From positions 235,024 to 299,023 of the forward strand of contig JAIUOC010000003.1 of the NCBI GenBank assembly GCA_020161265.1: a stretch of DNA of 64,000 bases. The letters run 5' to 3'. The notes beneath the pieces are model-generated. The model made no database searches, was not told the DNA's origin, and was given only the letters and a program-made list of their open reading frames with translations. Both the position numbers and the translations under genes were made by a program. This document shows, in pieces, positions 11,784-48,644 of the stretch. The stretch's first letter is position 1. The number at the start of each line of letters is the position of its first letter. This DNA comes from Chloroflexota bacterium. GTDB taxonomy: Bacteria > Chloroflexota > Chloroflexia > Chloroflexales > Herpetosiphonaceae.

Positions 11784-11859
11784 GGGTGATTAGCTCAGTT
11801 GGTAGAGCGTCTCGTTTACACCGAGTAGGTCGGGGGTTCGAGTCCCTCATCACCCACCA
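11784..11859 (+). tRNA. tRNA-Val (anticodon UAC)
   Basis: GGGTGATTAGCTCAGTTGGTAGAGC...TTTACAC anticodon loop...GGTTCGAGTCC...ATCACCCACCA. Confidence 0.85.
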
Positions 11860-11941
11860 ATGCCACTTTAGCTCAGTTGGTAGAGCATACGACTGAAAAT
11901 TGTAGGGTCTCCGGTTCGAGCCCGGAAGGTGGCACCAAATC
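11839..11941 (+). repeat. attL-like 103-bp direct repeat (3' 21 nt of tRNA-Val + tRNA-Phe)
   Basis: Identical to 48542..48644. Confidence 0.7.
11862..11937 (+). tRNA. tRNA-Phe (anticodon GAA)
   Basis: GCCACTTTAGCTCAGTTGGTAGAGC...CTGAAAA loop...GGTTCGAGCCC...GGTGGCACCA. Confidence 0.85.
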
Positions 11942-12131
11942 TAGACAACCAGTGATGAATTTCATCGCTGGTTGTTGTGTTTTTACTACAGAAACTAGCT
12001 GTAGTAGTTCTATGGGGTGATGGCATCATTCAGGAGGCAAGATCCCCGCTTGATGCCTAGCCTACCCTTCCTCACTTCAATCAATATTGCTATTCATCAT
12101 CGAACCTTCGTTGCACTTGTAAGGGTAAAAG

Positions 12132-12356
12132 CTAAAGGCCACTATCTGGGTTTTCCCTTGGGATAGCATTTTGTGGAACCCGAGCTTGATTGGCTTTTCC
12201 CAACTGTTGCTGGATTCCACTGATCACTTCATTAAGTGAATGGGAAACATTACCGTTTTGGAACTCGCATTCCATTGCTACTCGAACATTGTCGTCAATC
12301 TTATTATCAATAACCAGCGGTTGCACATATTCAACTCGGATTATGATTTTACTCAT
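12132..12356 (-). CDS. hypothetical protein
   Basis: 74-aa ORF, lower-GC region at element edge. Confidence 0.25.
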   Translation of the reverse strand: MSKIIIRVEYVQPLVIDNKIDDNVRVAMECEFQNGNVSHSLNEVISGIQQQLGKANQARVPQNAIPRENPDSGL

Positions 12357-12371
12357 TGAAAGGACTCCTTT

Positions 12372-12593
12372 ATGAGTGACGATGCAGAAATGTTCATTTC
12401 CATTACTTTCAAGGATGCTAGTAAAAGCGATTACTACATTGTTAAGCGTTCAGTATTAGAACAAATAGTAAAAGACTTCAATAGTTATCTTGAAACAGGA
12501 GCATTCCTTCCTGGCTCTTATGAAGCAAGAACTCGTGGAGGTCCAAGCGTTCTGCTTTCGATAAGGTTCAGTGATGTACGGATGATTGGATAA
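12372..12593 (+). CDS. hypothetical protein
   Basis: 73-aa ORF divergent from previous. Confidence 0.25.
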   Translation: MSDDAEMFISITFKDASKSDYYIVKRSVLEQIVKDFNSYLETGAFLPGSYEARTRGGPSVLLSIRFSDVRMIG

Positions 12594-12707
12594 ATGGTGC
12601 TGATCCTGAGCCGAGGGATTACAAGATTGGTAGCCCACAAACTTGTCAGCTAACACAATGGGAAAATTGACGAAATGTGATCCTTGAGCGAGCAGGAGTA
12701 AGGTGTA

Positions 12708-13121
12708 ATGCGAAAAATGCTCACATTAGGGTTCGTTGCTCTTTTGCTTGGAGCATGTGGCCAATCGAATCAACAAAAGATCTTGGGTAAATGGCAAATC
12801 GATGGTGAGACGGTATATGTCACAGATGGATCGATGATTACCCTGAATGGCCCAGAAATGTGCTACCAACTAGAGGGCGATACGATCAAGACGGCTTTTG
12901 CCAATCAAGCAACTATACCGTCATCATTGCGCCAGCAATTCAAAAGTACTCTGAAATTTGATGGCGATACGATGACGATGATCCCAGAAGCAACTGATAG
13001 TACTAATGTTTATACCCGTATCGGTGACATCTCAGATCAAGATAAATTGTTGTTGGTTGAGAAGAAACTTCGCGAACCAGGAACACCTTCTTGTTCTGAT
13101 GTTATGAATAGCTTTAAATAA
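12708..13121 (+). CDS. lipoprotein
   Basis: Lipobox LLGAC after basic N-terminus. Confidence 0.45.
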   Translation: MRKMLTLGFVALLLGACGQSNQQKILGKWQIDGETVYVTDGSMITLNGPEMCYQLEGDTIKTAFANQATIPSSLRQQFKSTLKFDGDTMTMIPEATDSTNVYTRIGDISDQDKLLLVEKKLREPGTPSCSDVMNSFK

Positions 13122-13261
13122 CACGGCCACCCACCACCCATCCCAATTAGGCCGTGTATATATGGAATTTAGATTGGTAATGTGCGTTATCTCGTAAGGG
13201 GTAACTGGCTTTGCGTGGTAGTGACTGTTGGTATTTGGCGATGCTCTCCAGTACTACCACA

Positions 13262-13320
13262 AATAGAACTAGCCCATCTCGTAGGTTGCTAAACTGTTAC
13301 GAGATGGGCTAGTTCTATTT
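13262..13320. repeat. 23-bp perfect inverted repeat (hairpin) overlapping the 3' end of the XRE gene; probable bidirectional terminator
   Basis: aaatagaactagcccatctcgta ... tacgagatgggctagttctattt. Confidence 0.45.
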
Positions 13321-13540
13321 TAGACTCTGAACCTTCTTCTGAATCTTCAAAAACCAACAAGTCTTGAACTGTTATACCCAACGCTTTGCACAACTTTGCT
13401 ACTGTCTCAGTAGTAATGTTGATTGTTGGGTTGTTCTTGATGTTCGAAATTCTGGCGGAGGTAAGACCCGTCTGTTCGGACAGATCCTTCACTGAGATTT
13501 TCCGTCTCCACATAATCTCATCCAGATTATTACGAATCAT
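13289..13540 (-). CDS. XRE-family HTH transcriptional regulator (phage repressor-like)
   Basis: ISVKDLSEQTGLTSARISNIKNN HTH motif; divergent from the early operon. Confidence 0.7.
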   Translation of the reverse strand: MIRNNLDEIMWRRKISVKDLSEQTGLTSARISNIKNNPTINITTETVAKLCKALGITVQDLLVFEDSEEGSESKIELAHLVTV

Positions 13541-13676
13541 GGCGACCCCCTATCGAGATGCTATGATTCTAATGTATAGAATAACATCTGTCAATAAGCT
13601 TTATTATGATACTATTCTATTGACATTATTATCATATAAGGTAATATATTGCTTATAAAGATAAGGAGCTACAACA
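13541..13676. promoter_or_regulatory. AT-rich divergent promoter / operator region (putative genetic switch)
   Basis: TTGACA ... 17-18 nt ... TAATAT upstream of 13677; repeated ATTCTATTGACA / TGTCAATA half-sites. Confidence 0.3.
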
Positions 13677-14225
13677 ATGACACACACTAAGGAAATCCGC
13701 TACGACTGCATCACCAAAGACTTCGCCCTCTACTTGAACGGCGAATCGATCGGCTATGCCAGCTCTTACAGCGAAGGCGAAAGCCGCTTGAACGAATTGG
13801 TCTATGACCTGTTACGCCGTGCCTCACACGCTGACATCAGCGACTTGACCCCCGAAGACGCTGATGTCGTCTTGGACGCTACGGTAGCTTTGGCTGGGGA
13901 AGTTATCACCGAGAACAGTGAAATTGAAGAATCAGCAACAGTTGTGGCTGATGTTGCAGCTGCATCAACATTCGAAATGATTGCCGGACCTGGCACTGAA
14001 AAAACTACCTACGTCAACACCCCAATTGATGCCCTCGCCCGAACCATCGCTATTTTGGGTCGCAACTGGCAACGAGCGATCCGCGCGGGCCGCTACGCCG
14101 ATGCTGAGCGCATCGAGTCCCACGAGCAATCCGTTCGCTCGCAATTTCGCGCATTGGCCACCTCACCAACGCCGCCGGCTATTCCCGCCGATCGCCACGC
14201 TCTCGTTCGCCAGATTAAATACTAA
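13677..14225 (+). CDS. hypothetical protein (phage early region)
   Basis: 182-aa ORF with RBS AAGGAG. Confidence 0.4.
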   Translation: MTHTKEIRYDCITKDFALYLNGESIGYASSYSEGESRLNELVYDLLRRASHADISDLTPEDADVVLDATVALAGEVITENSEIEESATVVADVAAASTFEMIAGPGTEKTTYVNTPIDALARTIAILGRNWQRAIRAGRYADAERIESHEQSVRSQFRALATSPTPPAIPADRHALVRQIKY

Positions 14226-14317
14226 ACCCTTCACTGCTCGTCAAAGCAGCAAAGGGCAAAGCGATGACCGAGGTATTGATTGGACTCCTTGCCTCGGTCA
14301 CGAAAGGATGATACCTG

Positions 14318-14626
14318 ATGACTACCGAAACCGTCAATCGTCGAGACCGCCTGAGTCGGGTCAGCCACATTCTCCAGCTTGCCACGATCATTGCGGAAGA
14401 AGAAGGCCTCGACGACAACGCCGCATATGAATTGGCCGAGCAAGAATATGATGCCACGGTGGCTGCCGAGCTGGCGTGGAGTGAGCATCAAATCGTTACG
14501 CCTATCCAAATTATTCCAACCACATGGGGTATGGTGCTACGGCGTGATGGTCAGAGGATTGTTCTAAGTCTCCGCGATGTTGGCCCTGTGGTGCAAGCAC
14601 TTACCGAGTGGGGGCATCGTGTATGA
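14318..14626 (+). CDS. hypothetical protein
   Basis: 102-aa ORF; stop overlaps next start (ATGA). Confidence 0.35.
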   Translation: MTTETVNRRDRLSRVSHILQLATIIAEEEGLDDNAAYELAEQEYDATVAAELAWSEHQIVTPIQIIPTTWGMVLRRDGQRIVLSLRDVGPVVQALTEWGHRV

Positions 14627-14835
14627 ATGGTCGCTACTACTGTATGCAATGCCCAACGGTTTGCCACACGGCTGCCATGCTCGCTTTGCATAAATCTCAA
14701 TCACATCCGCTTATGCCACTGCCAGCACTCAACCCGAATACGCGCAGACAATGCCCAGTGTGCAAACGTATGATCAAGCATCGCGATTGGGCAACCCATC
14801 AAAGCGTTATTCATCCGGCAGCGGAGCCAGCATGA
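14623..14835 (+). CDS. small protein with two C2H2-like zinc fingers
   Basis: C-x2-C-x12-H-x4-H (CMQCPTVCHTAAMLALHKSQSH) and C-x2-C-x11-H-x4-H. Confidence 0.4.
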   Translation: MNGRYYCMQCPTVCHTAAMLALHKSQSHPLMPLPALNPNTRRQCPVCKRMIKHRDWATHQSVIHPAAEPA

Positions 14836-15053
14836 ATCGCAAAAAGCTGTACCGTCCTCGCAAACTGCGAAGACGACAAGCGCCTGAATCCCCAACCTAT
14901 GATCCTGAAGTACTTCGTGCTATGGAATTGGGTTGGCCATGTAAATGCAGCGTTTGTAGGGAAGCATGGGCTGAAATATTTAGCCCAAGTGATAGTAGTT
15001 GGTATTGTCGAGTTTGTTCAACCTCAATTACCCAGGAGCAAATCAATGTCTGA
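14832..15053 (+). CDS. small zinc-ribbon protein
   Basis: CKCSVC...CRVC motif; ATGA start/stop overlap with the upstream gene. Confidence 0.35.
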   Translation: MNRKKLYRPRKLRRRQAPESPTYDPEVLRAMELGWPCKCSVCREAWAEIFSPSDSSWYCRVCSTSITQEQINV

Positions 15054-15384
15054 TACAACATCAACCATCAAAGTAGATCACCAAATTCACTTCACCATCG
15101 ATGGATTCCCATGCACGACCTCGGTTGCGGGCGCGACGGCGGAACAACTGAAGGTGGTGATTGATCGGTTGAAATCGATCGGTGCACAACCACCAACCGC
15201 GCACTCGTCCCAACCAACGGCGGCAGTTGCATCGACGAGCGCTGTGGCCCAACGAACGTGCCCAGTTCATGGAACCGCCTTGCAATTACGCCAAGGTACA
15301 CGGCGCGGCAAACCCTACAAGTTTTGGAGTTGCAACAGCACTGATGCTGATGGTGAATGGTGTGATCATACTGAGAAACCCTAA
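15046..15384 (+). CDS. hypothetical Cys/His-containing protein
   Basis: Start MSDTTSTIK overlaps the previous stop; C-terminal CPVHG...FWSCNS...EWCDH. Confidence 0.35.
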   Translation: MSDTTSTIKVDHQIHFTIDGFPCTTSVAGATAEQLKVVIDRLKSIGAQPPTAHSSQPTAAVASTSAVAQRTCPVHGTALQLRQGTRRGKPYKFWSCNSTDADGEWCDHTEKP

Positions 15385-15535
15385 GCCAATCGCGAAACGA
15401 ATAGCATGGCTATCGCGATCAACTGACCGATGATGGATGACCCGCCAGCAGTCCAAATCAGGCTGTTGGCGGATGTTTTTTTAGCGCGAAACGGTTATGA
15501 TAATATGAATTATACAAACCGCTGGAGAGTCGAGC

Positions 15536-16525
15536 ATGAATAATGATTTTACACTCGCATTAACTACCCTTGCTGCAAGTACGCCAGCTGCAATTCAACC
15601 AACCACCAACCCCTTTATCGCCTATATCGCTAGTCTGCAAAGTGCCAATAGCCAACGCACCATGGAGAAGCAGCTGCATAGTTTGGCAACAATGATGGGC
15701 TTTGCCGATGCGCATGTGGTTCCGTGGTCGCAGCTGCGGGTTGAACATACCCAAGCCTTGTGGGCCAAACTCGCCAGCAGCAAATCAGCATCCACCGCCA
15801 ACCTCATGCTCTCGGCGTTACGCGGGGTGCTGAAGATGGCGTGGCGCATGGGCCTGATCACTGGTGAGGACTACACGCGAGCGGTTGATCTCAAAACAGT
15901 CAAAGGGAACGCACCCGATGCCGCAGCGGGGCGATCGCTCACCGCTGCCGAACTCCGCGCCTTATTTGCCGCGTGTGCTGCTGATTCATCGCCCGTTGGG
16001 CGGCGTGATGCGGCGATTCTGGCACTGGCCTATGCCGCTGGCGGTTTGCGTCGGGCGGAGATCGTTAATCTCGATCTGGCCGACTTCAATCCTGAAACGG
16101 CGATGCTGACGATTCGTGGCAAGGGCAATAAGGTGCGGACGGCATATGTGCGGGGTGGTGCGCGTGATGCCCTCGACGAGTGGCTGGCAGTGCGTGGCGA
16201 TGAAGCTGGGCCACTCTTCTGGCGCTTACAAGCTGGTGGTGTGGCAGGCCAGATGTATGAGCGGCTTAGTGATCAGGCGATTTATATCTTGTGCCAGCGA
16301 CGTGGCAAGGATGCCAATGTGCGGCATTTCAGCCCGCACGATATTCGACGAACCTTTATTAGTGATCAACTGGATGCGGGAACGGATGTCTTGACGGTTG
16401 CCCGGCTGGCAGGTCACAGCAATGCCAACACCACGAGCCGCTACGATCGGCGGGGTGAGCGAGCCAAACAAGCTGCGGCTGATGCATTGCATGTGCCATT
16501 TGTTGTTACACAATTTGATAAATAA
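15536..16525 (+). CDS. tyrosine recombinase (XerC/D / phage integrase family)
   Basis: Catalytic residues: R (LRRAEIVNLD), HDIRRTF, HSNANTTSRY (R..HxxR..Y). Confidence 0.8.
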   Translation: MNNDFTLALTTLAASTPAAIQPTTNPFIAYIASLQSANSQRTMEKQLHSLATMMGFADAHVVPWSQLRVEHTQALWAKLASSKSASTANLMLSALRGVLKMAWRMGLITGEDYTRAVDLKTVKGNAPDAAAGRSLTAAELRALFAACAADSSPVGRRDAAILALAYAAGGLRRAEIVNLDLADFNPETAMLTIRGKGNKVRTAYVRGGARDALDEWLAVRGDEAGPLFWRLQAGGVAGQMYERLSDQAIYILCQRRGKDANVRHFSPHDIRRTFISDQLDAGTDVLTVARLAGHSNANTTSRYDRRGERAKQAAADALHVPFVVTQFDK

Positions 16526-16548
16526 AATAATTGATGAAAGGATTTATA

Positions 16549-17331
16549 ATGGCTAAACAAGTAAAAATACCCATATCAAGACAAGAGTTAGAATCTCAGC
16601 TTGAAGATCACCTACATTTCCTTCAAAAATCATGTCAAGATTTTGATAATGGTGATGAACGTGAAGCTAAAAGAATATCAATAACACTTAGAATCCTATT
16701 ACATAGCACCCGTACTTCTCATAGTTTATTAGATCAACTAGGTCGTAAAAATATATCATTTTATGATACATCTACCGATGATTATAAAGGTAATCTATCC
16801 ATATATAAAGGATTAACAGCTGAACAACTTATTCCTGGTGGAATAGTGTATAAAGCTCGTCTACAAAAATTAAGGAGCAGTCGTTGGACTAAATTTGATG
16901 AATGGTGGACAAAAATTATTATGGATAATAGGAAAGGTCTTACTTTCTCACGAAGAGATTTTGTTCTATATGTGGCTGATCAAGATGGTGGTGCCCATGT
17001 AGATCCTGCAATTGATGAAAGATATGTAGAATTATCACGAAAAAACCCAATGCAGCTATTTATTGCTGTTAATGCTAACCAAGAACCTGTTACTCATATC
17101 GAACGGGTTACTATTCGCCAAATAGCACATGAGGTCTTAGGAACAATGATTCCTAACTACACTTTTATTCCTCCTCCAATCACACATGAAGGGCCTTGGG
17201 TTGCTGATTTAGCAGTTGTACCCGGAACAAAACCTCCGCCTACAACGCCCATTAAGAAAATTGGTAGAAATGATCCTTGCCCTTGTGGTAGTGATAAAAA
17301 ATACAAATATTGTCATGGTATACAACGATAG
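16549..17331 (+). CDS. SEC-C-motif protein with uncharacterised N-terminal domain (AT-rich cargo gene)
   Basis: C-terminal GRNDPCPCGSDKKYKYCHG; GC visibly far below surroundings. Confidence 0.5.
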   Translation: MAKQVKIPISRQELESQLEDHLHFLQKSCQDFDNGDEREAKRISITLRILLHSTRTSHSLLDQLGRKNISFYDTSTDDYKGNLSIYKGLTAEQLIPGGIVYKARLQKLRSSRWTKFDEWWTKIIMDNRKGLTFSRRDFVLYVADQDGGAHVDPAIDERYVELSRKNPMQLFIAVNANQEPVTHIERVTIRQIAHEVLGTMIPNYTFIPPPITHEGPWVADLAVVPGTKPPPTTPIKKIGRNDPCPCGSDKKYKYCHGIQR

Positions 17332-17396
17332 CTTAATATAGGAGGAGTGCTATAATTGTTAACAGACTTTTCAATATAGAATCAATTATAATCACG

Positions 17397-17987
17397 ATGG
17401 CTAATATACTGAACATATCGGATAAGGAGTACCAAATGATGAATCTGATAATGGAGAATATTCTGAAACAGCAAAATGACTTTAACGAAAAATCATCTAT
17501 GATCAAGAAGAAATTCGATGATTTTTCCGCTGAATTTATACATAACCTAAAAAATGCTGTTTCCGAAGGATCGCGGATGGGTATAAAAGATATGAATTTT
17601 GTGAGTGCTAAAAGCCTATCAAATGAAATTTCTGAAGATATATTTAAATTAAATAATAGAGAATACGTAATTATTACAGATAGTAGAGCTAATTATATTT
17701 TTGTGAAAAATAAATTACCTTTAATTACATATAGAATGATTATATATAATAATGATAAAAATGCAATGCCATATATGATTATAAATTTACAAGAAAACGG
17801 AGGTAATTCCATAAAGTTATATATAGAGAGATATACATCTACAAATGATAGCGATATCATACATCAAGAAAATGACATAGACGATAAAAGTCCATCTACA
17901 TCTGTTCAAGAAGTGATACGTTATATATATAATACAAAAAATATGTGGCTTAGTGTACCACTATATAAATATCATGAAAAATCATAA
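17397..17987 (+). CDS. hypothetical Asn/Ile/Lys-rich protein (AT-rich cargo gene)
   Basis: 196-aa ORF, extreme AT bias, no known motif. Confidence 0.4.
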   Translation: MANILNISDKEYQMMNLIMENILKQQNDFNEKSSMIKKKFDDFSAEFIHNLKNAVSEGSRMGIKDMNFVSAKSLSNEISEDIFKLNNREYVIITDSRANYIFVKNKLPLITYRMIIYNNDKNAMPYMIINLQENGGNSIKLYIERYTSTNDSDIIHQENDIDDKSPSTSVQEVIRYIYNTKNMWLSVPLYKYHEKS

Positions 17988-18004
17988 CTTATATCTCGAA
18001 ATAC

Positions 18005-18034
18005 TTGACAAGCGCACATGGGTGCTGGTATAGT
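18005..18034 (+). promoter_or_regulatory. sigma70-like promoter (TTGACA-18-TATAGT)
   Basis: Near-consensus -35/-10 elements upstream of 18117 gene. Confidence 0.35.
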
Positions 18035-18116
18035 ATTGCTACCGTAAGGACGGATGACCGCCTACGATGTGTGCAACACATCGGGGCGTTTTTTATTTCC
18101 CCACCGAGGAGGGGAT

Positions 18117-18491
18117 ATGCTTCCAGAGACGCTACGCACCATCTATGGCGATCCGGATGCGGATGCAACGGAATTTGGCACCAAGTACTTTGTGTGGGGA
18201 ACACCGCCCGATCCGAACGCAGCATTACCCAGCACATCTCCGCAGCGACGGCTGTGCGGCGCACGCTTTACTTATCGGATTCGCCCTGGCGAAAGCAATC
18301 ATGAGTTCGAATCCCGCGTTGATGCGCTAGCCCTGAAATTCTTGAGCGGCAGCGGCACATTGTATATCGAAGGCGAAATGACCTTTAGTCGCCATCGCTA
18401 TACTGAAGCAGCCCTGACCCTGTATCATGCGCCCATTGTTGCCCCCATCGATGTGCCCAAAGTCCTTCGTCGTCCATCCGCTGCGGCCTAG
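18117..18491 (+). CDS. hypothetical protein
   Basis: Strong RBS GAGGAGGGG 3 nt before ATG 18117 (track ORF 18054 ignored). Confidence 0.4.
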   Translation: MLPETLRTIYGDPDADATEFGTKYFVWGTPPDPNAALPSTSPQRRLCGARFTYRIRPGESNHEFESRVDALALKFLSGSGTLYIEGEMTFSRHRYTEAALTLYHAPIVAPIDVPKVLRRPSAAA

Positions 18492-18546
18492 AGCGCCATA
18501 GCAGGAACAATCGAATCATTTGGATAGTCAGTAGTTACGAGACGCG

Positions 18547-18590
18547 GCTATCAACCCTCACCTGAGGGTTGGTGGCCGCTTTTTTTATGC
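18547..18590 (+). terminator. rho-independent terminator
   Basis: gcggc...caaccctca/tgagggttg...gccgc hairpin + TTTTTTT. Confidence 0.45.
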
Positions 18591-18609
18591 CCGTTGGAGG
18601 AACCCGCTC

Positions 18610-18972
18610 ATGACCGAAGGAGACTTGCTCAAAGTGTATGGCCCTAGCCTCTTTCTGGTGGGGTGGTTCCTCTACCGCGAAGTCTGGCCGTTGCTCAAAG
18701 AACGCCTGCGTCCTGACCTCGTGGCCCAACGCCGCAAGGCCGAAGCCCAAGCCGAAGCCAAGGTCTTGACCGCCTTTATCGACAACACCGCCGCCATGAC
18801 GGGGCTGAAGCACACGCTGGAGGTGGTGTCGGACGAAATGAGCCGCCTGCGCGAAGGGCAAGAAGTCCATACCCAGTTGTTAGCCGAGTTGTTTGGCTTT
18901 TTCCGGCAGCCGCGCCCCAGTCCCAATCCGAGCACGCGGCCACGCCCCAGCAAAAAAGGAGAGACCGTATGA
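18610..18972 (+). CDS. holin-like small membrane protein
   Basis: N-terminal TM (SLFLVGWFLY), charged C-terminus, immediately upstream of endolysin. Confidence 0.35.
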   Translation: MTEGDLLKVYGPSLFLVGWFLYREVWPLLKERLRPDLVAQRRKAEAQAEAKVLTAFIDNTAAMTGLKHTLEVVSDEMSRLREGQEVHTQLLAELFGFFRQPRPSPNPSTRPRPSKKGETV

Positions 18973-20086: not shown

Positions 20087-20194
20087 TGTCGCTTTGGCGA
20101 CGATCAGCGGCGGTGCGGCTGCGCCGTGGGCGGGGCTAGAGCAGCAGAATGGCTGTGTTCCCCCGCCCCACCGCAAACTTTTCAAGGAGATCGC

Positions 20195-20476: not shown

Positions 20477-20527
20477 TCCATCGATACCGAATCATTTCGA
20501 ATCATTGTCGCATCACCTGAGGCTGCC

Positions 20528-37445: not shown

Positions 37446-37447
37446 AT

Positions 37448-40336: not shown

Positions 40337-40633
40337 ACAACTATCTCCTCATAATCATAATGGTAGCTGCGCAGCCGGTTAAAGAATGTCGGCACGACCA
40401 AATGACCAATTTAGGCGATTCTAATGCGCTATTTTTTGCTTGGCGATTTGTAGGCCGTCTGAATGCGAAATGAATACGATTTGAACACGATGTGAACATA
40501 TACGCCGAGGGAAAAGATGGTGCGAGCAAAAGAAACGCCATTAGCAAATAACGCATCTGCCAACGGCGTTTTTGTAATAGATGAATTCCTATATTCGATA
40601 GTATTTGATTATTTTCAATGATAATGAAAATAA

Positions 40634-41758
40634 TCATGAGATGTCGGATTGTTCAATCAGTTGTTTAATCTGGCGGATTTGTTCTTGACGGCGCTTGCGT
40701 TTACCGCCTAAAGTGTCAATAATTTCGTTGCCACTTTTCTGCTCAAGGAGCAATTTGGTAATCGCGACAATATCCTCGATACTGGTTCCCTCAATCGCGG
40801 TAGTTTCGCTGGTTCCCTCGGTTCCCACGCTTGAATTGTTCTCTTTTTGCTCTTGGGTACTAGGGTACTGCCATACAACACTCTGATTAATTGGCTGAAG
40901 TGACAATGCATAGGCAGGCTCACGATCACACCAAAACCATTTACTATTCCACTCAACGGCTGCTGGCCATGATAGTGACGAAGATGCTTTCATTTTCTCT
41001 ACAGCCCGATCGCCGATTGCTACCCATAAGAGATTATCGAGTGCTTCACTATCACCCTCAATTCCTAACGGATTGACCAATGTGGTTTGGGTTACGACGA
41101 TAAGATGCATTCGGTATTTGGCAGCTTGGCGAAGCATTTCACCAACAAAGCGCCGAGCAATTGGTACTTTGGGTTTTGCCGATGATCCATCTTCGCCATG
41201 CACCTTACTCATCACATCAGGTGCTTCTTCGAGTACGATCGTAATAGGATCAAACTCAATTACCCCTTTTGAAGCAGCTTCCTTGCGTGCTTGGAGTTCC
41301 TCAAGAAGTATCTTCATGACATGGTTAATCTCGCCATACGCCTGAACTTGTGACAACCCACCATAGTCATTTGGTCGGGCATGCGAGTTGAGAATCACCA
41401 GCTGGTGTCCATCAATCGAACGTAAGTAGGTCAAAGCCATACTAAGTATCGATTTTCCTTGTCGTGATGGTCCGGCAATCCCAATATGTGGTCGCTTCCC
41501 GAGCAGCTCCAGCAGTGCAGGCCACATATAGATTGATGGCTGATCGTCGATAGATGAAGCAACAACACCTTTGGTTGATGATTTTGCGATTGGTGTTACT
41601 GTCACAGGTTTTGTTTGCCCACTCGATTGACCTGGTATCGAGAGTGCTGGTCGTCGTTTTGCTGGAGGAGTTCGTGCATGCCACCAGAGAAATGTACCTA
41701 CAAAACTACAGGCAAAAAGAAATATTGTTGGATAAAGCCAAGGGGAGTTAATATCCAT
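40634..41758 (-). CDS. FtsK/SpoIIIE-like DNA translocase ATPase with N-terminal TM (TraB/TraSA-like)
   Basis: Walker A GPSRQGKS, Walker B IVLEEAPDV; start at ATG 41758 with RBS AAGGAGGA. Confidence 0.6.
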   Translation of the reverse strand: MDINSPWLYPTIFLFACSFVGTFLWWHARTPPAKRRPALSIPGQSSGQTKPVTVTPIAKSSTKGVVASSIDDQPSIYMWPALLELLGKRPHIGIAGPSRQGKSILSMALTYLRSIDGHQLVILNSHARPNDYGGLSQVQAYGEINHVMKILLEELQARKEAASKGVIEFDPITIVLEEAPDVMSKVHGEDGSSAKPKVPIARRFVGEMLRQAAKYRMHLIVVTQTTLVNPLGIEGDSEALDNLLWVAIGDRAVEKMKASSSLSWPAAVEWNSKWFWCDREPAYALSLQPINQSVVWQYPSTQEQKENNSSVGTEGTSETTAIEGTSIEDIVAITKLLLEQKSGNEIIDTLGGKRKRRQEQIRQIKQLIEQSDIS

Positions 41759-42194
41759 CGTGCTCCTCCTTTGATGTAGCTCCAAACGCCAAATACTCGG
41801 GCCACCGAGCAGAGACAATTCCAATTGCTAATCCTAGCGCCCATGCTATCAATCGTGCGGTTATGCCTGTGCTCAGCTTGTATGCGATTTGATAAAACAG
41901 CCAATCACACCATTTGTAGGCGGTAATAATGGCATCGGGAGCCAGAAAGCTTACGTAGCCCCACCCTGAACGCCGTAAGGTGTACATTTGTCCCACAAAG
42001 AGAAAGAAGGCTAGCCCAAGCCCTGCAAAGATTCCTCGGAGATCGCGTTGGCCCCAGAGCCAATATTGAAAATCGCTCATTGTTGAGACGGTGGTCACAA
42101 TACTATTGCCCCAACCAATTGTGCAGGCGATCCCCTTTACGAGTTTGCGACTGGGGTCGAGGCGGCGTAGATCGAATAACACATCGGTAGTCAT
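41748..42194 (-). CDS. membrane protein
   Basis: 148-aa ORF with hydrophobic helices. Confidence 0.3.
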   Translation of the reverse strand: MTTDVLFDLRRLDPSRKLVKGIACTIGWGNSIVTTVSTMSDFQYWLWGQRDLRGIFAGLGLAFFLFVGQMYTLRRSGWGYVSFLAPDAIITAYKWCDWLFYQIAYKLSTGITARLIAWALGLAIGIVSARWPEYLAFGATSKEEHDGY

Positions 42195-42293
42195 CGTGTT
42201 CTCCTTTGGTATACTAGCGCTGCATCACTTTGGTGTTCTCCTGTGATGCACGCCGCCGATGGTGGTGCATCGGCGGCACTTTATCCTTATTAA

Positions 42294-42647
42294 TTAAGTA
42301 TTGGTTTCATTGATATCCGGTGGAGATTCTGTTTGTGCATCAGCGGCAGAGTTTGACTGAACTGTCACACACTGGTATTCGATGAGATAAAGATCGGCAT
42401 AGCGCTGCAATGGTGCGTCATAGTAAGCTCGGCCAACAGGCTGTGCTCCTCGTTTAAGCCGATAACCCATCTTTGTAATTTGGGTTTTGGTGCGCAAGGT
42501 CATCCCAACTCGTTCAAGAAGGGGAATCCAATGCTCCCGCTGCCCTGATCCCCACGTGAATCGATTTCCTTCTAATCCTTGGGCTACATCGTTTAGCACC
42601 CGTCGAATAACTTCAATTCGTTGTTTGGCGGTATTTGGTGATCCCAT
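42294..42647 (-). CDS. hypothetical protein
   Basis: 117-aa ORF. Confidence 0.3.
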   Translation of the reverse strand: MGSPNTAKQRIEVIRRVLNDVAQGLEGNRFTWGSGQREHWIPLLERVGMTLRTKTQITKMGYRLKRGAQPVGRAYYDAPLQRYADLYLIEYQCVTVQSNSAADAQTESPPDINETNT

Positions 42648-42653
42648 AAAACC

Positions 42654-42974
42654 TCATACATCATATTCAAGGTAGGGGTCGTCAGTTATAGGGTCTGGCG
42701 TGCTCTGGTTTTGTTCAACAGAAGTTGAACAATTGGCTAACGCTTGTTCAACGTTTCCAGTAAGTAATTCCATTAATTTGCTGCGAATTGCTTCATCATT
42801 GATTCGGGCAAGGCTTGCCATAATATCGGCAGCGAATAAACGAATATCTTTGCCACTGGCATGCAGTCCAATAATGATGAGGGCGCGGAGCACTGCGGAT
42901 TCATTACCAAGGCTCCTAACGGTTTTGCTTAGCAAGGTGGAACTTCGCGTAGTTAGGCGTTCTTCAAAACTCAT
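42654..42974 (-). CDS. hypothetical protein (possible ParR-like adaptor)
   Basis: Small ORF immediately downstream of ParM-like gene. Confidence 0.25.
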   Translation of the reverse strand: MSFEERLTTRSSTLLSKTVRSLGNESAVLRALIIIGLHASGKDIRLFAADIMASLARINDEAIRSKLMELLTGNVEQALANCSTSVEQNQSTPDPITDDPYLEYDV

Positions 42975-43963
42975 TGGCCAAGCTCCTCATAGCGCCGCGC
43001 ACGGCGGGCGTATCCGCGTGCGATCGCTGTTTGTGGATTTGGGGCAACAATAGCCTGTCGAAAGCGTTGTTGGAGCGCACGAACAAGGATTGGCAACTCA
43101 GCTCCACCGCCTGCGATAATGATGGCATCGAGCTTTCCGCCACTTCCCCAGGCACGCACCATCGCATCGGCAACTTGCTGACCATTTGCTTCCCAAGGGC
43201 GTTCCCAACCTGTTGGTAGATCGAGTTCTTCGCCGGCTACCCGTACATAGCCCTTGCGCACTGCTTGATCAACATCGTGAAGTGTGAGATCGATGTTATA
43301 ACGCCCGCTAATTCGCGTTTGGAGTTGCTGGAGTGGATTAGCACTCCCAAGCTCGAAGCTAATCGCACTATCGGGAATAACATTTAAGGCTTGGACAATG
43401 CAGGCATCCACGGTGTTATGACCAAGATCAATGACTCCAATGCGGCCTGTCTCGTATCCAAGATTGAGAATGCGCCCTGTTTCATCGAGTAACACGCCAT
43501 ACAATGCCCCAAGTGGCTCGCTAATCACACGAATTCCTGTTTTGAGGGTTGCACCGTGAAAGAACCCACTTGGCACAGCGTCACGTAAACGCCCAGCAAG
43601 CGCAACTGCGAGATCACGCTCACCTATCCAAGCTGCTGGTAACCCGGTTACACAAGCGCCGCCAGTTGGTTGGCCAAGCCGTTGAAGTGCTCCTTTAACA
43701 AGCGCTGGAATAATGTGGCGGTCGTAGAGTCGTTGTTGTGAGCGAAGAGAGAGGGGCGAGGGTGCTAATAATGCGTGCTCACCCGTCCACCAGAGTGTTC
43801 CATGAACTTCTACCGTTGGAATATCGTGGAGACTTCCCTCTGCATTGCTTGCTGCTGGAGCAACAATTGCTGGAAAAATAGTTGTCTGCTCTTCGCCATT
43901 CTCATTGATTGTGTACTTAACAAAGCCATGGCCGATATTTGCTCCATGAACGGTAATTGACAT
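42971..43963 (-). CDS. ParM/StbA-family actin-like ATPase (partition)
   Basis: ASKHA motifs: GIDLGHNTVD, IIIAGGGAE. Confidence 0.55.
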   Translation of the reverse strand: MSITVHGANIGHGFVKYTINENGEEQTTIFPAIVAPAASNAEGSLHDIPTVEVHGTLWWTGEHALLAPSPLSLRSQQRLYDRHIIPALVKGALQRLGQPTGGACVTGLPAAWIGERDLAVALAGRLRDAVPSGFFHGATLKTGIRVISEPLGALYGVLLDETGRILNLGYETGRIGVIDLGHNTVDACIVQALNVIPDSAISFELGSANPLQQLQTRISGRYNIDLTLHDVDQAVRKGYVRVAGEELDLPTGWERPWEANGQQVADAMVRAWGSGGKLDAIIIAGGGAELPILVRALQQRFRQAIVAPNPQTAIARGYARRARRYEELGQ

Positions 43964-44033
43964 ATAATGCTCCTAAGTAAGGTTTCCCACAGGCCGCTGG
44001 TGTATGCATTGATTGCAGATACTGGTGGCTTTT

Positions 44034-44246
44034 TTATTGTTGTGATTGGTCAGCGATTGGTAATTTAAGGGGTGCAGAGTGATTGGGCTGGAAGGTAATT
44101 GTTCCGTAGGCTAACCATTGCCCTTTACGACCTTGCCGTGCAGACTGGATAGCAACGCCTGATTGCTGGAGCTGCGTTACCGCCGTTTGGGCATCTTCTT
44201 GAGAATCGGCGATGATACGGATCTGAACAATAATAGGCTTGTTCAT
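44034..44246 (-). CDS. hypothetical protein
   Basis: Start MNKPII with RBS AAGGGGGG. Confidence 0.3.
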   Translation of the reverse strand: MNKPIIVQIRIIADSQEDAQTAVTQLQQSGVAIQSARQGRKGQWLAYGTITFQPNHSAPLKLPIADQSQQ

Positions 44247-44254
44247 AACCCCCC

Positions 44255-45391
44255 TTATGATGCTGCTGATTGAAGATCGGTTCGTGTAATACCCATCCAC
44301 CATTGATCAAGATGGGTAGCAATCCACGCGCGTAAATCTATGCCACACTGTGCAACCATGGTTCCAAAATCGTGTGGGTCAGGGCGCATGCGATAGACTT
44401 CTTTGCCTTTGAAGATATCAAGCCAAAATGCAGCTGATTTATCTCCAGCGGCATCGGCATCAGTCGCGATAAAGAGTGGTTGGCACAAGCTGTATTGCAC
44501 GAGCCATCGAAATGCACGGCCTTGGGTTGTCCCAACTGCCACGACCCCAGCGAGTGGAGTTCCTCGTCGTTCAAATTGGCCAAGTGCTTGTTGGGCCACA
44601 AGGGCATCGATCGGTCCTTCAACAAAGATGCTTGGCTGCCCAGGTCGCAGCGTATCGATGCCATAGGGAACATTACTGCTTCCGGCTACCGTCACATACT
44701 TAAAGCCTTCATCACGAGGATTGGTTTGGCGAATTGAGAGCTTCCAGAGCTGCCCATCACAAAACCAAGGAATAACATACCCTGCAGGCAACCACACGCC
44801 ATCTTTATCCGGGTCATCAAGTCCCCACCGGTGTAATGGACGGTTGAGCGGTTTCGGGTTATAGCCAATTGCTGCGGTGCGGATTGTATGATCACTTAGG
44901 CCACGTTGGCGAAGATAGGTCAGCGGCGTTGAATCAGCAGCGGCATCTTTCCACAACATATCCACGCAATAGCCGAGAAAACTCAGGCCCATTTGTTGCC
45001 ATTGTGTGCCTGGTGGCTCACAGGCGCTCGGTGGCTCAGGGTCAGGAACCGATCGTGATTCCTTAGCTGATCGCGTAATGGTTAATCCGAGTGCTTCAAA
45101 AGCCGCTTTAATCAAAACAGGCCAATCAGGGTGATCTTTGGTTGGAATGAAGCCATGGTCGCGCAGGAAAATAAAATCAATATCCGATGCCCATGGCTGG
45201 CCCATGCGACAACCACGACACCACCAGCGGCCACCGCTATCGCCATGTGGTTGAACACGAAACCGATCCTTGCCACCACACAAGGGGCAGGCTCCGGCCC
45301 ATTCACCACCATTGGTTGCGGCTACTTTGCGCAGGGTAGTACGCTGGCCAACCAAGGCAAGAAAATCATCGCCGGAAAGATGGTCAATCAT
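44255..45391 (-). CDS. DnaG-type primase (zinc-binding + TOPRIM)
   Basis: CPLCGGKDRFR zinc finger; TOPRIM VEGPIDAL ... ATDADAAGD; RBS GGGAGG. Confidence 0.65.
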   Translation of the reverse strand: MIDHLSGDDFLALVGQRTTLRKVAATNGGEWAGACPLCGGKDRFRVQPHGDSGGRWWCRGCRMGQPWASDIDFIFLRDHGFIPTKDHPDWPVLIKAAFEALGLTITRSAKESRSVPDPEPPSACEPPGTQWQQMGLSFLGYCVDMLWKDAAADSTPLTYLRQRGLSDHTIRTAAIGYNPKPLNRPLHRWGLDDPDKDGVWLPAGYVIPWFCDGQLWKLSIRQTNPRDEGFKYVTVAGSSNVPYGIDTLRPGQPSIFVEGPIDALVAQQALGQFERRGTPLAGVVAVGTTQGRAFRWLVQYSLCQPLFIATDADAAGDKSAAFWLDIFKGKEVYRMRPDPHDFGTMVAQCGIDLRAWIATHLDQWWMGITRTDLQSAAS

Positions 45392-45675
45392 TGAAACCTC
45401 CCACAAGAAACGTCACTAGCGTCACCGAAGTGTCATGCTGTCTAAAGTAGTGATTTATGTCTTTCCAAAGGGATAAAACTGATAATCGTCGCAATGTCAC
45501 AAGTGTCACATGATTCTCGTTATTGAGGACTCTGGTTAATGATCGCGTGCATGTTTCATATTAAATTGGACATGTCCCCCTGTGACTCTGTGACTCTTCT
45601 TAAGAAAGCCGCTCTCAGAGGCGCTTTTTAGCGTCACAATCCATCGGTGACAGTTCGGTGACGTTGTGTCGCTTC

Positions 45676-47271
45676 TCATGCGCTGAACCTCCATACCTGA
45701 ATTGATCGGCCATTGGCTGCTTTGCTATCCAGCACATCAACCTGGCCTGCAAGTCGTAACACCTCTAAGACCTCGGTAATCTCTTTTTTGGATTGGTGGG
45801 TTCTGCGGCAAAGATCACGCACCGTCAACCCTGAAAGGGTATCTTTCAGAATGTCCAGCAGTTTATCGCCCAACTTAGTTTCTTCACTCTGAATCCCATC
45901 GCTCCAAATACGGTGCAAATCGCTGCGCCAGCGCTCGACAATCGCGATCGCGCGTTTGAGGTGATCGAGCTGCATGATTACTGGCAATTCAGGGCAATCC
46001 ATCGCGGCCAAAATCATGGCCACGCGCAATGCATGCCCTGGGAAACGGGCATAACTGGCATAGAGTGTGTCGGGTAGTCCGCTGTTGGGGAGATCGAACC
46101 GCAGCACCTTGTCATAGCGTTTCCACAATCCCATCACACCAGGTGCGAGTCGGATCGCACTCGGGGGATGTTCGTTATAGATCCGCACAAAGCGCTTGAT
46201 ATTTTCCTCAGGCACATCGTCTACCAGTTCGGCCTCGGGCTTGGGAAACAGGGTATCCAGATCCTTGAGACCATCAAGGAGGTCATCAGGCATCACCAAT
46301 TCGTCGGGAAACTCGGCATAACGAGGTGGTGCATCTGGCATCAGAATGGCGAAGCGACTCCATAGGCCTTCATCCCACAGTTTCTCGCTGCGGAGGTGAT
46401 CTTCAATATTCTTTGGTGTGGTTGCGCCAAGGAACGAGAGACTGGCATCACGAATCGTTGTTCGGCCATGGGTGATCGTTTCGTGGGCCAAGTATTCAGG
46501 GTTATCAAATAGCTTGAGTAAGAGCGAGAGCAGCTCGGCCATATACTCTTTTTTCATGTCACTGAATAAGAACCCGGCTTCATCGAGCAGCCATGCCCGT
46601 TGGGCCGCTTGGGCGCGGGCGAGCAGCCACTGTTCACGGTCATAATCACTGTAGCTGTCCAGCTTATCAGGAATGACGGTCGAAAACTGCTGGAGCAGCG
46701 ACTGAGGCGTGCTCTTGTCGGGTAAGAGCAAATGGCCAAGGCCCGCACGCCGCAGTACCCGCTCGACGACTTTCATGGCCGTCGATTTGGCATAGCGACC
46801 AGGGGGTGCAACGAACAAAGCATAGACATTGGGATAGTAGAAGGTCTCACCAATTTGGAGATACAGCCGTCGCGCGATCGCAGTTGCTGCTAGGAAAAGA
46901 CCTGCGGCTTCGTGAAAAATAGGTGGTGTGACTGGACTAGCTTGGCTGGCATAGTCAATGAAGGTGTCAAGCCATGTGCCACATTTGCCCTGCTGTCGAA
47001 TGACCTTTGTCAGTTCGTTCGGCAGCGGCGGCATGGTGCGGAGCGCCGGTGTTGGCTCACTCTCGATTAAGAGCGAAGCAATCCGATGATCGGCGCGGAT
47101 TGCCGTCTCCAGCGCCGCACGAACGCCGTCTGCACCACCAGCTTCGAATGCCTGCATCAGACTCTGAATAACAGCTTCCCATTCACCATAATCCTGTTGA
47201 CCAGGGATTGTTGATTGCAACAATGCGTTGATTGCAATGCGGGCTGCTAAAAAGGTAGGTTGTGTTGTCAT
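45676..47271 (-). CDS. DUF3987-like primase-associated / replicative helicase-loader-like protein
   Basis: 531 aa; degenerate P-loop VAPPGRYAKST; genomic association with primase. Confidence 0.4.
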   Translation of the reverse strand: MTTQPTFLAARIAINALLQSTIPGQQDYGEWEAVIQSLMQAFEAGGADGVRAALETAIRADHRIASLLIESEPTPALRTMPPLPNELTKVIRQQGKCGTWLDTFIDYASQASPVTPPIFHEAAGLFLAATAIARRLYLQIGETFYYPNVYALFVAPPGRYAKSTAMKVVERVLRRAGLGHLLLPDKSTPQSLLQQFSTVIPDKLDSYSDYDREQWLLARAQAAQRAWLLDEAGFLFSDMKKEYMAELLSLLLKLFDNPEYLAHETITHGRTTIRDASLSFLGATTPKNIEDHLRSEKLWDEGLWSRFAILMPDAPPRYAEFPDELVMPDDLLDGLKDLDTLFPKPEAELVDDVPEENIKRFVRIYNEHPPSAIRLAPGVMGLWKRYDKVLRFDLPNSGLPDTLYASYARFPGHALRVAMILAAMDCPELPVIMQLDHLKRAIAIVERWRSDLHRIWSDGIQSEETKLGDKLLDILKDTLSGLTVRDLCRRTHQSKKEITEVLEVLRLAGQVDVLDSKAANGRSIQVWRFSA

Positions 47272-47292
47272 ACATCCCTCAAAAACAACCTC

Positions 47293-47508
47293 TCACGCAA
47301 GGAGAGAGGAAAGGCTGATAGGTTCTCGTTGTGGTGCTGGTGGGGGGGGATTGAGAAAGTGACATTCCAGCATCAATTGAATGCGGCGCAGTCGTTCCAC
47401 GTGGACGCTATTCGCATTCATTGGTAACGAGCGCTCGGCTATTTGTAAGGTAAAGACTAGGTCGTCCAGATCCTGTTGTTGTTCCGGTGATAAAGTGTGA
47501 GATTGCAT
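47293..47508 (-). CDS. small hypothetical protein (possible regulator)
   Basis: 71-aa ORF divergent from integrase. Confidence 0.25.
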   Translation of the reverse strand: MQSHTLSPEQQQDLDDLVFTLQIAERSLPMNANSVHVERLRRIQLMLECHFLNPPPPAPQREPISLSSLLA

Positions 47509-47635
47509 AACAGTTGCAACCTTTCTGCTACCGTGTGTAGCGGGTTGTTGTCATCGTCCTGTAATCTAGCGCTCCAAAAAGAGAAAATTGGTTGCACCTT
47601 ATATAGGGTGTGTACATTTTGTGAGGAGCGTTTAA

Positions 47636-48510
47636 TGCCTACGATTCACTCTCTACTTCCTGCATATGAGCGTTCTATGCGCTCACGTGGGCAACGCCCA
47701 AGGGGTATCCAACGCTATATCGCCCATCTCCGCAGCTTCCTCGTTCACGCTGGGAATGATTTTGATATCGTTGATCTGAAGCCACGCGACATTCGCAGGT
47801 TTCAAGAAGTCCGTTGTGAGGAAGTGGCCCTTCGCACCGTCCATGGTGCGTTGACGGCCCTTCGCTCGTTTTGCCTTTGGGCTATCGAGGAAGAGTACAT
47901 TGCAGACGATCCGACTGCGCGAATGCGATGGCCCAAGCTACCAGAAACAGCCCCAAAAGCATTGACGCGTCAACAGCTTCGCCGTTTGATGACAGCCCTA
48001 GAAGAGCCGATTGACTTGGCTACTCATGAGCGATGGCAATGGCGGCGAAATAGACGGGTTATTTTATTGATGTTATTTGCTGGGTTGCGTATGTCGGAAG
48101 TGATTGACCTACGCTGGCGCGATGTCGATCTTGATAATCGCGTCTTGGTTGTGCGTGATGGAAAGGGCGGGCGAGCACGTTCGCTACCCATTCATGCAGC
48201 ATTGGCAAAAGAGCTTAGTCGTGTTGCTATAAAAGATCCAGAGTATGCGGTTGCTGGTCGGAGCGATGGTGCTCCAGTATCCCGCGATCACGATAAGATG
48301 TTTCGGCGCTGGTTGAAGGAACGTGGTGTCGAGTTGAGTGCTCACCAGCTGCGTCACACGTTTGCGACTGAATTAATGCGGAGTGGTGCAAATTTACGGT
48401 ATATCCAAGAACTTATGGGCCACCGTAGTATTGAAACCACCCAACGCTATCTCTTGGTCGAGCCAGATGTGCTACGGGTTGCTGTAGCACAAATGCCTGC
48501 TGCCTGGTAG
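47636..48510 (+). CDS. int: tyrosine integrase
   Basis: RBS GAGGAG; catalytic motifs LRMSEV..., HQLRHTFAT, HRSIETTQRY; adjacent to att repeat. Confidence 0.8.
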
Positions 48511-48541
48511 GTTTTATCTCCTCTAGATGAGGGATTGTAGC

Positions 48542-48644
48542 CGAGTCCCTCATCACCCACCAATGCCACTTTAGCTCAGTTGGTAGAGCATACGACTGAA
48601 AATTGTAGGGTCTCCGGTTCGAGCCCGGAAGGTGGCACCAAATC
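48542..48644 (+). repeat. attR-like 103-bp direct repeat
   Basis: Identical to 11839..11941. Confidence 0.7.
48565..48640 (+). tRNA. tRNA-Phe (GAA), second identical copy within the att repeat
   Basis: Same 76-nt sequence as 11862..11937. Confidence 0.8.

Follow-up and report, generated by a model that had tools for sequence, protein, structure and literature searches.

How can a mobile element enter an operon of tRNA genes and leave each of these genes whole behind its promoter? The question is raised by a 64,000-nt stretch of the Chloroflexota contig JAIUOC010000003.1 (hereafter the window, to which all coordinates refer unless another sequence is named), in which a tRNA-Leu-Val-Phe cluster is separated from a second tRNA-Phe gene by a long insert. 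The insert is very probably a temperate, siphovirus-like prophage of 36.7 kb from a Herpetosiphon host (Chloroflexota), integrated in the tRNA-Leu-Val-Phe operon by an Xer-like integrase.

Direct repeats, empty sites and gene content

A repeat search of the window found a perfect direct repeat of 103 nt (100% identical) at 11839-11941 and 48542-48644, with a start-to-start distance of 36,703 bp. A random perfect 103-mer within 64 kb is effectively impossible, and inspection of the edges by eye places a mismatch directly outside each end (t at 11838 versus c at 48541, and t at 11942 versus a at 48645). ARAGORN and Rfam alike found four tRNA genes in the window, all on the + strand, namely tRNA-Leu(GAG) at 11677-11763, tRNA-Val(TAC) at 11784-11859, tRNA-Phe(GAA) at 11862-11937 and a second copy of tRNA-Phe at 48565-48640; besides these four, Rfam detected no RNA family in the window. 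Each copy of the repeat opens at C56 in the T-loop of tRNA-Val, takes in the final 21 nt of this gene, and extends across a spacer of 2 nt and the full length of tRNA-Phe (76 nt) to a point 4 nt past the encoded CCA. At the left attachment site (attL, 11839-11941) tRNA-Val is intact, and at the right one (attR, 48542-48644) its 3′ 21 nt are followed by the displaced tRNA-Phe, both in the + orientation. A whole tRNA gene (tDNA) at one end with a fragment in the same orientation at the other is the arrangement by which the Islander method recognizes integrated elements. A search for a third or degenerate attachment site inside the element, as a tandem array would hold, returned only the known copies and a 19-nt self-similarity of tRNA D-arms.

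The protein encoded on the right flank (48680-50098, − strand) had no record in an exact-protein look-up, probably owing to a start-codon mismatch; it was used as a query against a species-representative genome set and led to six loci, those of Herpetosiphon aurantiacus DSM 785 (99% amino acid identity), H. giganteus, H. geysericola, H. llansteffanensis, strain NSE202 and one Chloroflexia metagenome-assembled genome (MAG). At all six, the tRNA-Leu-Val-Phe cluster directly adjoins the right-flank gene and tRNA-Phe is single. When the window was aligned with each locus by blastn, homology ended at 11941 and restarted at 48542, exactly at the repeat edges, and the flanks were 94-97% identical to H. 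aurantiacus DSM 785. The 103-bp host site (attB) is identical in four of the five Herpetosiphon isolate genomes, H. llansteffanensis differing at the last base only, and for this reason the perfection of the repeat is uninformative on the age of the insertion. The flanks encode a GNAT acetyltransferase, a secreted nuclease/phosphatase-type protein and SufC/SufD/SufS-like proteins, which are ordinary conserved host genes.

Most of what the initial annotation had read from this locus is borne out by these results. It had described the perfect repeats with a second full tRNA-Phe (recovered here by the repeat search, ARAGORN and Rfam), a right copy with only the last 21 nt of tRNA-Val, and flanks of ordinary host genes (conserved here in the relatives), and it had proposed the search for an empty site, which is present in all six related genomes. 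It had also called the interior phage- or plasmid-like, and with Pfam and PHROGs we indeed found temperate-phage functions together with a plasmid-like replication block.

The virion genes lie in a late block at 18004-35461 on the + strand, with a GC content of 0.595, and were assigned with Pfam and PHROGs. The block starts with a 145-aa open reading frame (ORF), after which two single-transmembrane holin candidates (18610-19337) precede an amidase of the Amidase_2 endolysin type (19334-20086, E = 3e-24). Then follow a helix-turn-helix (HTH) candidate for the small terminase (20528-21055), TerL (20967-22499; phrog_2, E = 9e-24, and tblastn matches to annotated phage terminases), a portal of SPP1 type (approximately 22513-23883; SPP1_portal, E = 6e-22), a scaffold (23837-24394), the major capsid protein (24407-25282; Phage_capsid_4, E = 2e-13), a head-tail adaptor (25490-26077) and a tail completion protein (26065-26538). 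The putative tail tube (27310-28326) matched Phage_tube_2 at 24.1 bits, below the cut-off of 27, and no tail sheath was detected; a non-contractile, siphovirus-like tail is thus supported in part. By position, the 1138-aa ORF at 28888-32304 is a tape-measure candidate and the two large ORFs at 32309-35457 would encode distal tail proteins. TerL, portal and major capsid, the genes by which a tailed phage is recognized, are thus present, as are lysogeny control (HTH_26) and lysis (Amidase_2 and the two single-transmembrane ORFs). The best GenBank phage match of TerL is 32% identical, and there is no close cultured relative.

Closer relatives were found as prophages. The IMG/VR contig IMGVR_UViG_2508501111_000002 aligned with the late block, 18004-35461, at 92-93% nucleotide identity, with limits exactly at the GC steps of the window, and contained the replication block in the same order at 72-86%. 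This contig matches a prophage of H. aurantiacus DSM 785 (CP000875.1, approximately 761-795 kb), and a sister prophage with conserved layout of the late and replication genes is also carried by H. llansteffanensis (CA052B). The replication and partition proteins of the sisters show 58-93% amino acid identity with their order kept; the left arm of the DSM 785 prophage was not captured in the comparison. According to the Nei-Gojobori method, all 19 late genes, which are intact, have ratios of non-synonymous to synonymous divergence (dN/dS) of 0.01-0.33 and dS of 0.15-0.40 against the DSM 785 sister, and the replication genes have dN/dS of 0.05-0.22 and dS of 0.8-1.9. The low dN/dS in both indicates that the late and replication modules are under purifying selection, and the approximately 5-fold lower dS of the late block indicates that the two modules have different histories, as in ordinary phage mosaicism.

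The sister prophages have an unrelated integrase of 287 aa, co-oriented with the replication genes. They lie beside EamA and tRNA-Asn, in DSM 785 (L024, 2234-2372; CP000875.1) and likewise in H. llansteffanensis (L027). At this locus a full tRNA-Asn is followed, after 22 nt, by a partial 3′-half copy diverging from the anticodon loop onward, a pattern which suggests that the sister prophage may have entered one of two tandem tRNA-Asn genes via an anticodon-loop-type integrase. Since both the integrase and the target differ, the module of integrase and attachment site has been swapped within the prophage family.

Several points weigh against the reading as an integrated temperate phage that entered at the position proposed below. 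No excisionase was recognized in the element, it encodes two tyrosine recombinases, and neither Pfam nor PHROGs gave a family for its tape measure and its distal tail proteins. The phage attachment site (attP) junction or a free form was not found in IMG/VR or Joint Genome Institute (JGI) metagenome contigs. The source is apparently a MAG, and the integrated configuration rests on assembly. As to the crossover, the point of exchange is unreadable from the locus because attL equals attR, the lysogens retrieved included none with mismatched attachment sites, and the tRNA fragments in distant relatives were called by eye.

The first and third of these points, together with the failure to find a free form in the public contigs, would fit a cryptic or domesticated prophage, either a remnant or similar to a gene transfer agent, that has lost excision or infectious particles. 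We regard this as unlikely, although it is the strongest of the alternatives. The late and replication ORFs of the element are without exception intact and, compared with the sister, show purifying selection, the attachment sites are perfect and all catalytic residues of the integrase are present. In addition, the absence of the element from the six related genomes points to a strain-specific acquisition rather than a fixed host module, and the different integrase and attachment modules of the sister elements imply active mobility. Both completeness and a capacity for induction rest on gene content and purifying selection, and we lean, with some reserve, towards an inducible prophage.

Integrase clade, probable crossover target and a proposed rebuilding of the operon

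The integrase adjoining the right repeat is an Xer-like tyrosine recombinase of 291 aa without an arm-binding domain (47635-48510, + strand; Pfam Phage_integrase, E = 3e-35; phrog_1, E = 7e-56). Its residues R152, H237, R240, H263 and Y272 are catalytic and invariant in the alignment. The start is most likely at 47635, which is Met47 of the ORF 47497-48510, and the stop codon lies 31 bp from the right repeat; the initial annotation was correct on the adjoining integrase and needs amending in the start (47636) and the distance (30 bp).

Because the locus itself does not reveal the crossover, the relatives of the integrase were inspected for the tRNA sequence that follows the gene. A 97% identical relative was found in two metagenome contigs, where the sequence from stop codon to repeat is the same as in the window, and the longer of the two (L011) has the same DUF3987 and primase neighbours. 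In relatives with 57-58% identity, as in the 97% relative, a pseudo-T-arm comes right behind the stop codon and leads into the 3′ end of a tRNA-Val, of which the 57-58% relatives have the last ~17 nt, and then tRNA-Phe; their Val-Phe spacers measure 16 and 0 nt. Kallotenue (L018) and L020, at 43-55% identity, have only a tRNA 3′ fragment of 19-20 nt that begins within the T-loop, with host DNA behind it. Similarly, a tRNA fragment starting at the T-arm with no additional tRNA was seen in 8 of the 12 informative IMG/VR loci with 36-44% identity. In these distant members of the clade (36-55%), the 3′ fragment is 17-27 nt in length, begins in or at the T-arm and is without a further tRNA. An attachment fragment reaching from the T-arm to the tRNA 3′ end, the trait of Islander subsite 'J', is found in the window (from C56 of tRNA-Val), in L011-L014, in L018 and in L020. 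Crossover subsites in the T-loop and at the T/acceptor junction have been defined for tDNA islands (Islander, PMC4383910; also summarized in bioRxiv 10.1101/2020.11.02.365908).

Since the fragment next to the integrase starts in the T-arm across the clade, and in the window this fragment is the 3′ end of tRNA-Val, the integration target is probably tRNA-Val, at the T-loop or the T-acceptor junction, with tRNA-Phe as a passenger in an extended attP identity block. Of the initial annotation, which had placed the integration at tRNA-Phe, the insertion in the tRNA operon stands, and the T-loop signature of the integrase clade makes tRNA-Val the more likely target. Its description of the identity segment as unusually long does not hold; 103 bp is long and not unusual, as core identities of 50 and 110 nt are found in 186-like prophages (PMC3448106).

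The same prophage could have entered by strand exchange inside tRNA-Phe, in its anticodon loop or T-loop, the 3′ end of tRNA-Val being merely extra homology. The whole of tRNA-Phe lies within the identity block, and with attL equal to attR any point of the 103 bp is formally possible. Nevertheless, identity upstream of such an exchange point would restore nothing, and the left edge falls in the tRNA-Val T-loop both here and in the 57-58% relatives, though the Val-Phe spacers are 2, 16 and 0 nt. Clade members at other targets, moreover, keep the fragment from T-arm to CCA only and no further tRNA. An exchange in tRNA-Phe is therefore improbable, somewhat more so than a cryptic prophage.

The ends of metagenome contigs were also considered as a guide to the crossover position. 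Four independent contigs with integrase relatives (L012, L013, L016 and L017) all break off within the anticodon loop of the tRNA-Phe that lies downstream (...gcgactgaaa[a]). Such ends would fit an exchange in tRNA-Phe, but tRNA repeats shared across species explain them equally well, and the ends probably mark a branch of the assembly graph caused by tRNA-Phe variants shared between species; this approach was rejected.

With the exchange placed in tRNA-Val, the locus can be read as an operon that was rebuilt upon integration. Upstream of tRNA-Leu, a consensus scan found a host promoter with a 12/12 match (TTGACA-17-TATAAT, 11587-11615, + strand), and the native terminator of the operon, a hairpin with a T run (48645-48672, + strand), is kept in all six empty sites. 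Given this promoter, the three tRNAs are probably transcribed together as far as the terminator at 48645-48672. After the attL tRNA-Phe, the element supplies a strong intrinsic terminator of its own (11944-11985, + strand), with a 15-bp stem (11944-11976) and a T run, in place of the native one.

In the mechanism we propose, the integrase would recombine the phage attP, located just downstream of its gene, with the host tRNA-Leu-Val-Phe operon. This attP would contain the last 21 nt of tRNA-Val, the spacer, the whole tRNA-Phe, 4 nt and then the phage terminator, and strands would most likely be exchanged at the 5′ edge of the identity block, at the T-loop or T-acceptor junction of tRNA-Val. 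An integration restoring tRNA-Val alone would separate tRNA-Phe from the promoter. With the longer attP, attL would consist of the host tRNA-Leu and the 5′ part of the host tRNA-Val joined to a phage-derived tRNA-Val 3′ end, tRNA-Phe and terminator, and the host promoter would drive Leu, a hybrid Val and a phage-borne Phe up to the phage terminator. The displaced 3′ fragment of the host tRNA-Val, its tRNA-Phe and the native terminator would then be found at attR, behind the integrase gene. Following this scheme, we infer that the tRNA-Phe at attL derives from the phage. According to a preprint (bioRxiv 10.1101/2020.11.02.365908), islands generally keep away from tDNAs in polycistronic units, and an attP with a downstream tRNA and terminator is, as far as the arrangement of the locus tells, a way around this constraint.

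The left arm of attP and attR has a 9-bp inverted repeat, GATGAGGGA / TCCCTCATC, flanking the start of the identity block like a T-arm mimic (48526-48554, + strand), with analogues in L013 and L014. In all three the arm upstream of the identity block is complementary to TCCCTCA, the 3′ strand of the tRNA-Val T-stem, at spacings of 11 nt (window, 48526-48554), 1 nt (L013, ~10883-10900) and 4 nt (L014, ~8198-8216). This arm possibly imitates a T-arm, serves as a core site for the integrase, terminates the integrase gene or signals processing. Arm-type integrase-binding repeats were not apparent in the reconstructed attP, where 9-11-mer repeats are no commoner than in shuffles.

Modular organization and the second recombinase

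The element is modular, with a lysogeny and early arm, the GC-rich late block, strain-specific cargo and a plasmid-like replication and partition block. The GC content follows this division, being 0.45 in the left arm (11942-18003), 0.595 in the late block, 0.36 in the cargo (35462-39400) and 0.50 in the replication and partition block (39401-47271).

The left arm begins with a lipoprotein-like ORF (12708-13121, + strand) which has a signal peptide and Cys on reading of its sequence, no family match, and is likely a moron. A Cro/CI-type HTH protein (13289-13540, − strand; Pfam HTH_26, E = 3.7e-18), divergent from the early genes, is the repressor candidate. Small early ORFs follow on the + strand (13677-14225, 14318-14626, 14751-15053 and 14899-15384); most early genes had no match in PHROGs and Pfam, and three of them have homologues in the metagenome contig L029, where they are followed by the second recombinase. 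In the window this recombinase (15536-16525, + strand) is Xer-like with R-H-R-Y present (Pfam Phage_integrase, E = 1e-23), and low-GC cargo (16531-17987, + strand, GC 0.31) consisting of a SEC-C-motif protein (phrog_7805) and a 196-aa ORF separates it from the late block.

A homologue of the second recombinase with 63% identity is located on a 31.5-kb phage contig (L028/L013), just upstream of the holin, amidase and terminase genes; the same contig has a 57% homologue of the integrase at the attachment site, and both recombinases occupy the same relative positions as in the window. A 47% homologue was found by tblastn in L008, ~5 kb upstream of a TerL 76% identical to that of the window, and a single-protein search of IMG/VR with the second recombinase gave no confirmed locus. 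Judging from these neighbourhoods, the second recombinase is apparently no stray insertion. Its family is widespread, with 2464 database proteins at E<=1e-30, and members were seen at 15536-16525 in the window, 1543-2598 in L028, 36-827 in L008 and 10001-10975 in L030; in three diverged phages the gene precedes TerL by ~5 kb. The L030 homologue is at one end of a 10-kb element that has a large serine recombinase at the other end.

The cargo after the late block starts with an N6/N4 DNA methyltransferase fused to an Mrr-type endonuclease domain (35674-37182, + strand; Pfam, and MTase_II in PADLOC), a restriction-modification-type gene absent from the DSM 785 sister prophage, and continues with a Schlafen/AlbA_2-domain protein (37448-38644, − strand; Pfam, E = 4.5e-10). 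Only the methyltransferase was matched by PADLOC, in which the Schlafen/AlbA_2 and SEC-C proteins are not known defence genes.

The genes of the replication and partition block are on the − strand. The first encodes a replication-relaxation family protein (39401-40336; Pfam Replic_Relax, 33.6 bits, cut-off 25.3) with 91-93% amino acid identity to its sister-prophage homologues. Next comes a membrane-anchored P-loop ATPase of 374 aa (40634-41758), with a transmembrane helix near its N-terminus, the Walker A and Walker B motifs and no sequence match in Pfam, NCBIfam or PDB. The DSM 785 homologue is named 'FtsK domain-containing protein' in UniRef, and the top Foldseek matches in PDB are the FtsK motor, the TcpA coupling protein and EssC (E 2e-4 to 1e-3, TM-score ~0.3), found with a low-confidence AlphaFold model made from five sequences (predicted local distance difference test, pLDDT, 58.8). 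A weak likeness to FtsK/TcpA may be taken as a lead and not as an assignment. The block further encodes an actin-like protein (ParM/ALP) for segregation (42971-43963; Pfam ALP_N and MreB-like_C, with NCBIfam ParM and PRTRC_D below cut-off), a primase with zinc ribbon and Toprim (44255-45406; Pfam) and a DUF3987 protein presumed to act in replication (45676-47271; Pfam, E = 1.5e-22, and 'DNA primase' families of PHROGs). A plasmid-collection search with the DUF3987 protein found no relative.

The two tyrosine recombinases, the sharp GC steps (0.45, 0.60, 0.36 and 0.50) and the different dS of the late (0.15-0.40) and replication blocks (0.8-1.9) could also be expected from a composite of at least two tandem or nested elements, a phage late block and an integrative plasmid or actinomycete integrative and conjugative element (AICE)-like element, each with its own recombinase. 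There is, however, no internal attachment site copy, the pairing of late and replication blocks is kept in DSM 785 and H. llansteffanensis, and the occurrence of both recombinases on the 31.5-kb phage contig, as well as the second one upstream of TerL in L008, argues for a single phage; mosaicism is also normal in temperate phages. A composite is thus quite doubtful. The late block has a GC content 10 points above that of the host (0.595 versus 0.49), and the contigs that hold relatives of its TerL have 63-68% GC. This composition and the lower dS against the DSM 785 sister imply that the late block may have been exchanged recently between Herpetosiphon prophages, with a putative origin in higher-GC Chloroflexota phages.

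A misassembly in which the common 103 bp joined a free circular phage to an empty host site is very improbable. In its favour, the best match in the databases is a contig of a MAG, and a repeat present in both phage and host makes the assembly graph ambiguous. But common reads, like the large k-mers of metagenome assemblers, are longer than 103 bp, so that both junctions are normally spanned, and even a misjoined contig would contain a phage with the same attP and attB, leaving the biology unchanged. A simple duplication of tRNA-Phe with unrelated DNA in between and no mobile element, for which the two tRNA-Phe genes and nothing more would speak, is ruled out by the empty sites, where one tRNA-Phe stands with nothing in between, and by the phage genome that fills the interior, its integrase gene lying at the junction.

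Two features of the host flanks were also observed. An intergenic repeat of ~68 nt occurs at 54111-54178 and 60700-60767, with 78% identity, abundant CTTCGYG-like heptads and the 3′ end GTGGATCAAA; the copies are ~40-50 nt upstream of the start codons of the SufS-like gene (54215) and of the ORF at 60773. It may be a dispersed regulatory or repetitive extragenic palindromic (REP)-like element of Herpetosiphon. In a lower-GC stretch of the flank (2202-4194, − strand), there are four tandem paralogous ORFs of ~160 aa, of which neighbours are 75-81% identical at the nucleotide level (repeat families D1 and D3).

Comparison with known systems

To our knowledge, very few phages of Chloroflexota have been characterized. 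One Herpetosiphon genome paper mentions prophages, and only an 'incomplete' one of 16 kb (PMC6210107). The present locus and the DSM 785 sister define an apparently functional temperate phage family for this predatory, filamentous genus. The sister of DSM 785 and H. llansteffanensis resembles the window prophage in the late block, the replication and partition block and the overall layout, and differs in the integrase, the target (tRNA-Asn) and the cargo, a clean example of swapping of integrase and attachment site between a tRNA-Asn anticodon-loop type and a tRNA-Val T-loop type. The 291-aa integrase with its compact attP, and an attB near-invariant in Herpetosiphon isolates, make a candidate single-copy integration vector.

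Among tDNA prophages and islands described by Islander (Williams 2002; Hudson et al. 2015, PMC4383910), those of subsite 'J' share with the window element a tyrosine integrase near one end and an empty site in relatives. In both, the target tRNA is restored at one end of the element, and the other end holds the displaced 3′ part, equally oriented and starting in the T-loop. The window differs from them in that its identity block runs through a complete second tRNA of the operon and is followed by an element-borne terminator, and in its host phylum, which is barely represented among characterized phages. It is a clean example of an attP bearing a whole downstream tRNA and a terminator, letting a polycistronic tRNA operon survive integration.

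Haemophilus phage HP1 integrates in tRNA-Leu (PMC12540744, PMC3448106). HP1, a P2/186-like myovirus, has an integrase that binds arm sites and a crossover in the anticodon loop, whereas the window prophage is siphovirus-like and has a short Xer-like integrase with a T-loop signature. The attachment site of HP1 is reportedly an identity of ~182 bp that also covers a downstream tRNA gene, and HP1 is said to integrate inside a polycistronic tRNA cluster by an attP with the 3′ part of the target tRNA and the downstream tRNA, so that the operon is rebuilt, with the crossover at the 5′ end of the long identity block. If this is so, the two systems are alike in carrying a downstream tRNA to rebuild an operon.

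AICEs (Ghinet et al. 2011, PMC3218068) and P1-type phage-plasmids offer a further comparison. The window prophage resembles this group in the integrase at a tRNA site, the replication module, a possible FtsK-like membrane ATPase, Replic_Relax, the actin-like partition protein, the extra tyrosine recombinase and the filamentous host, but the window element, in which the FtsK assignment is weak, has a complete virion and a lysis module. The presence of virion genes means that the element is not an AICE, and its integration between attachment sites that it is not a phage-plasmid in its present state; the plasmid collection gave no match. That the Herpetosiphon prophage family nonetheless has a dual lifestyle, forming virions and in addition using the ATPase, Replic_Relax, the ParM-like filament and the second recombinase for persistence as a plasmid (with Cre-like resolution by the latter) or for movement of double-stranded DNA between neighbouring cells of a filament, in the manner of AICEs in mycelial actinomycetes, is a long shot. 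Were it true, the operon-rebuilding attP would be an adaptation opening the internal genes of polycistronic tRNA operons as integration sites. Compared with these systems, the element is well-formed and of an ordinary kind, a temperate tailed phage residing as a tRNA-integrated tyrosine-integrase prophage.

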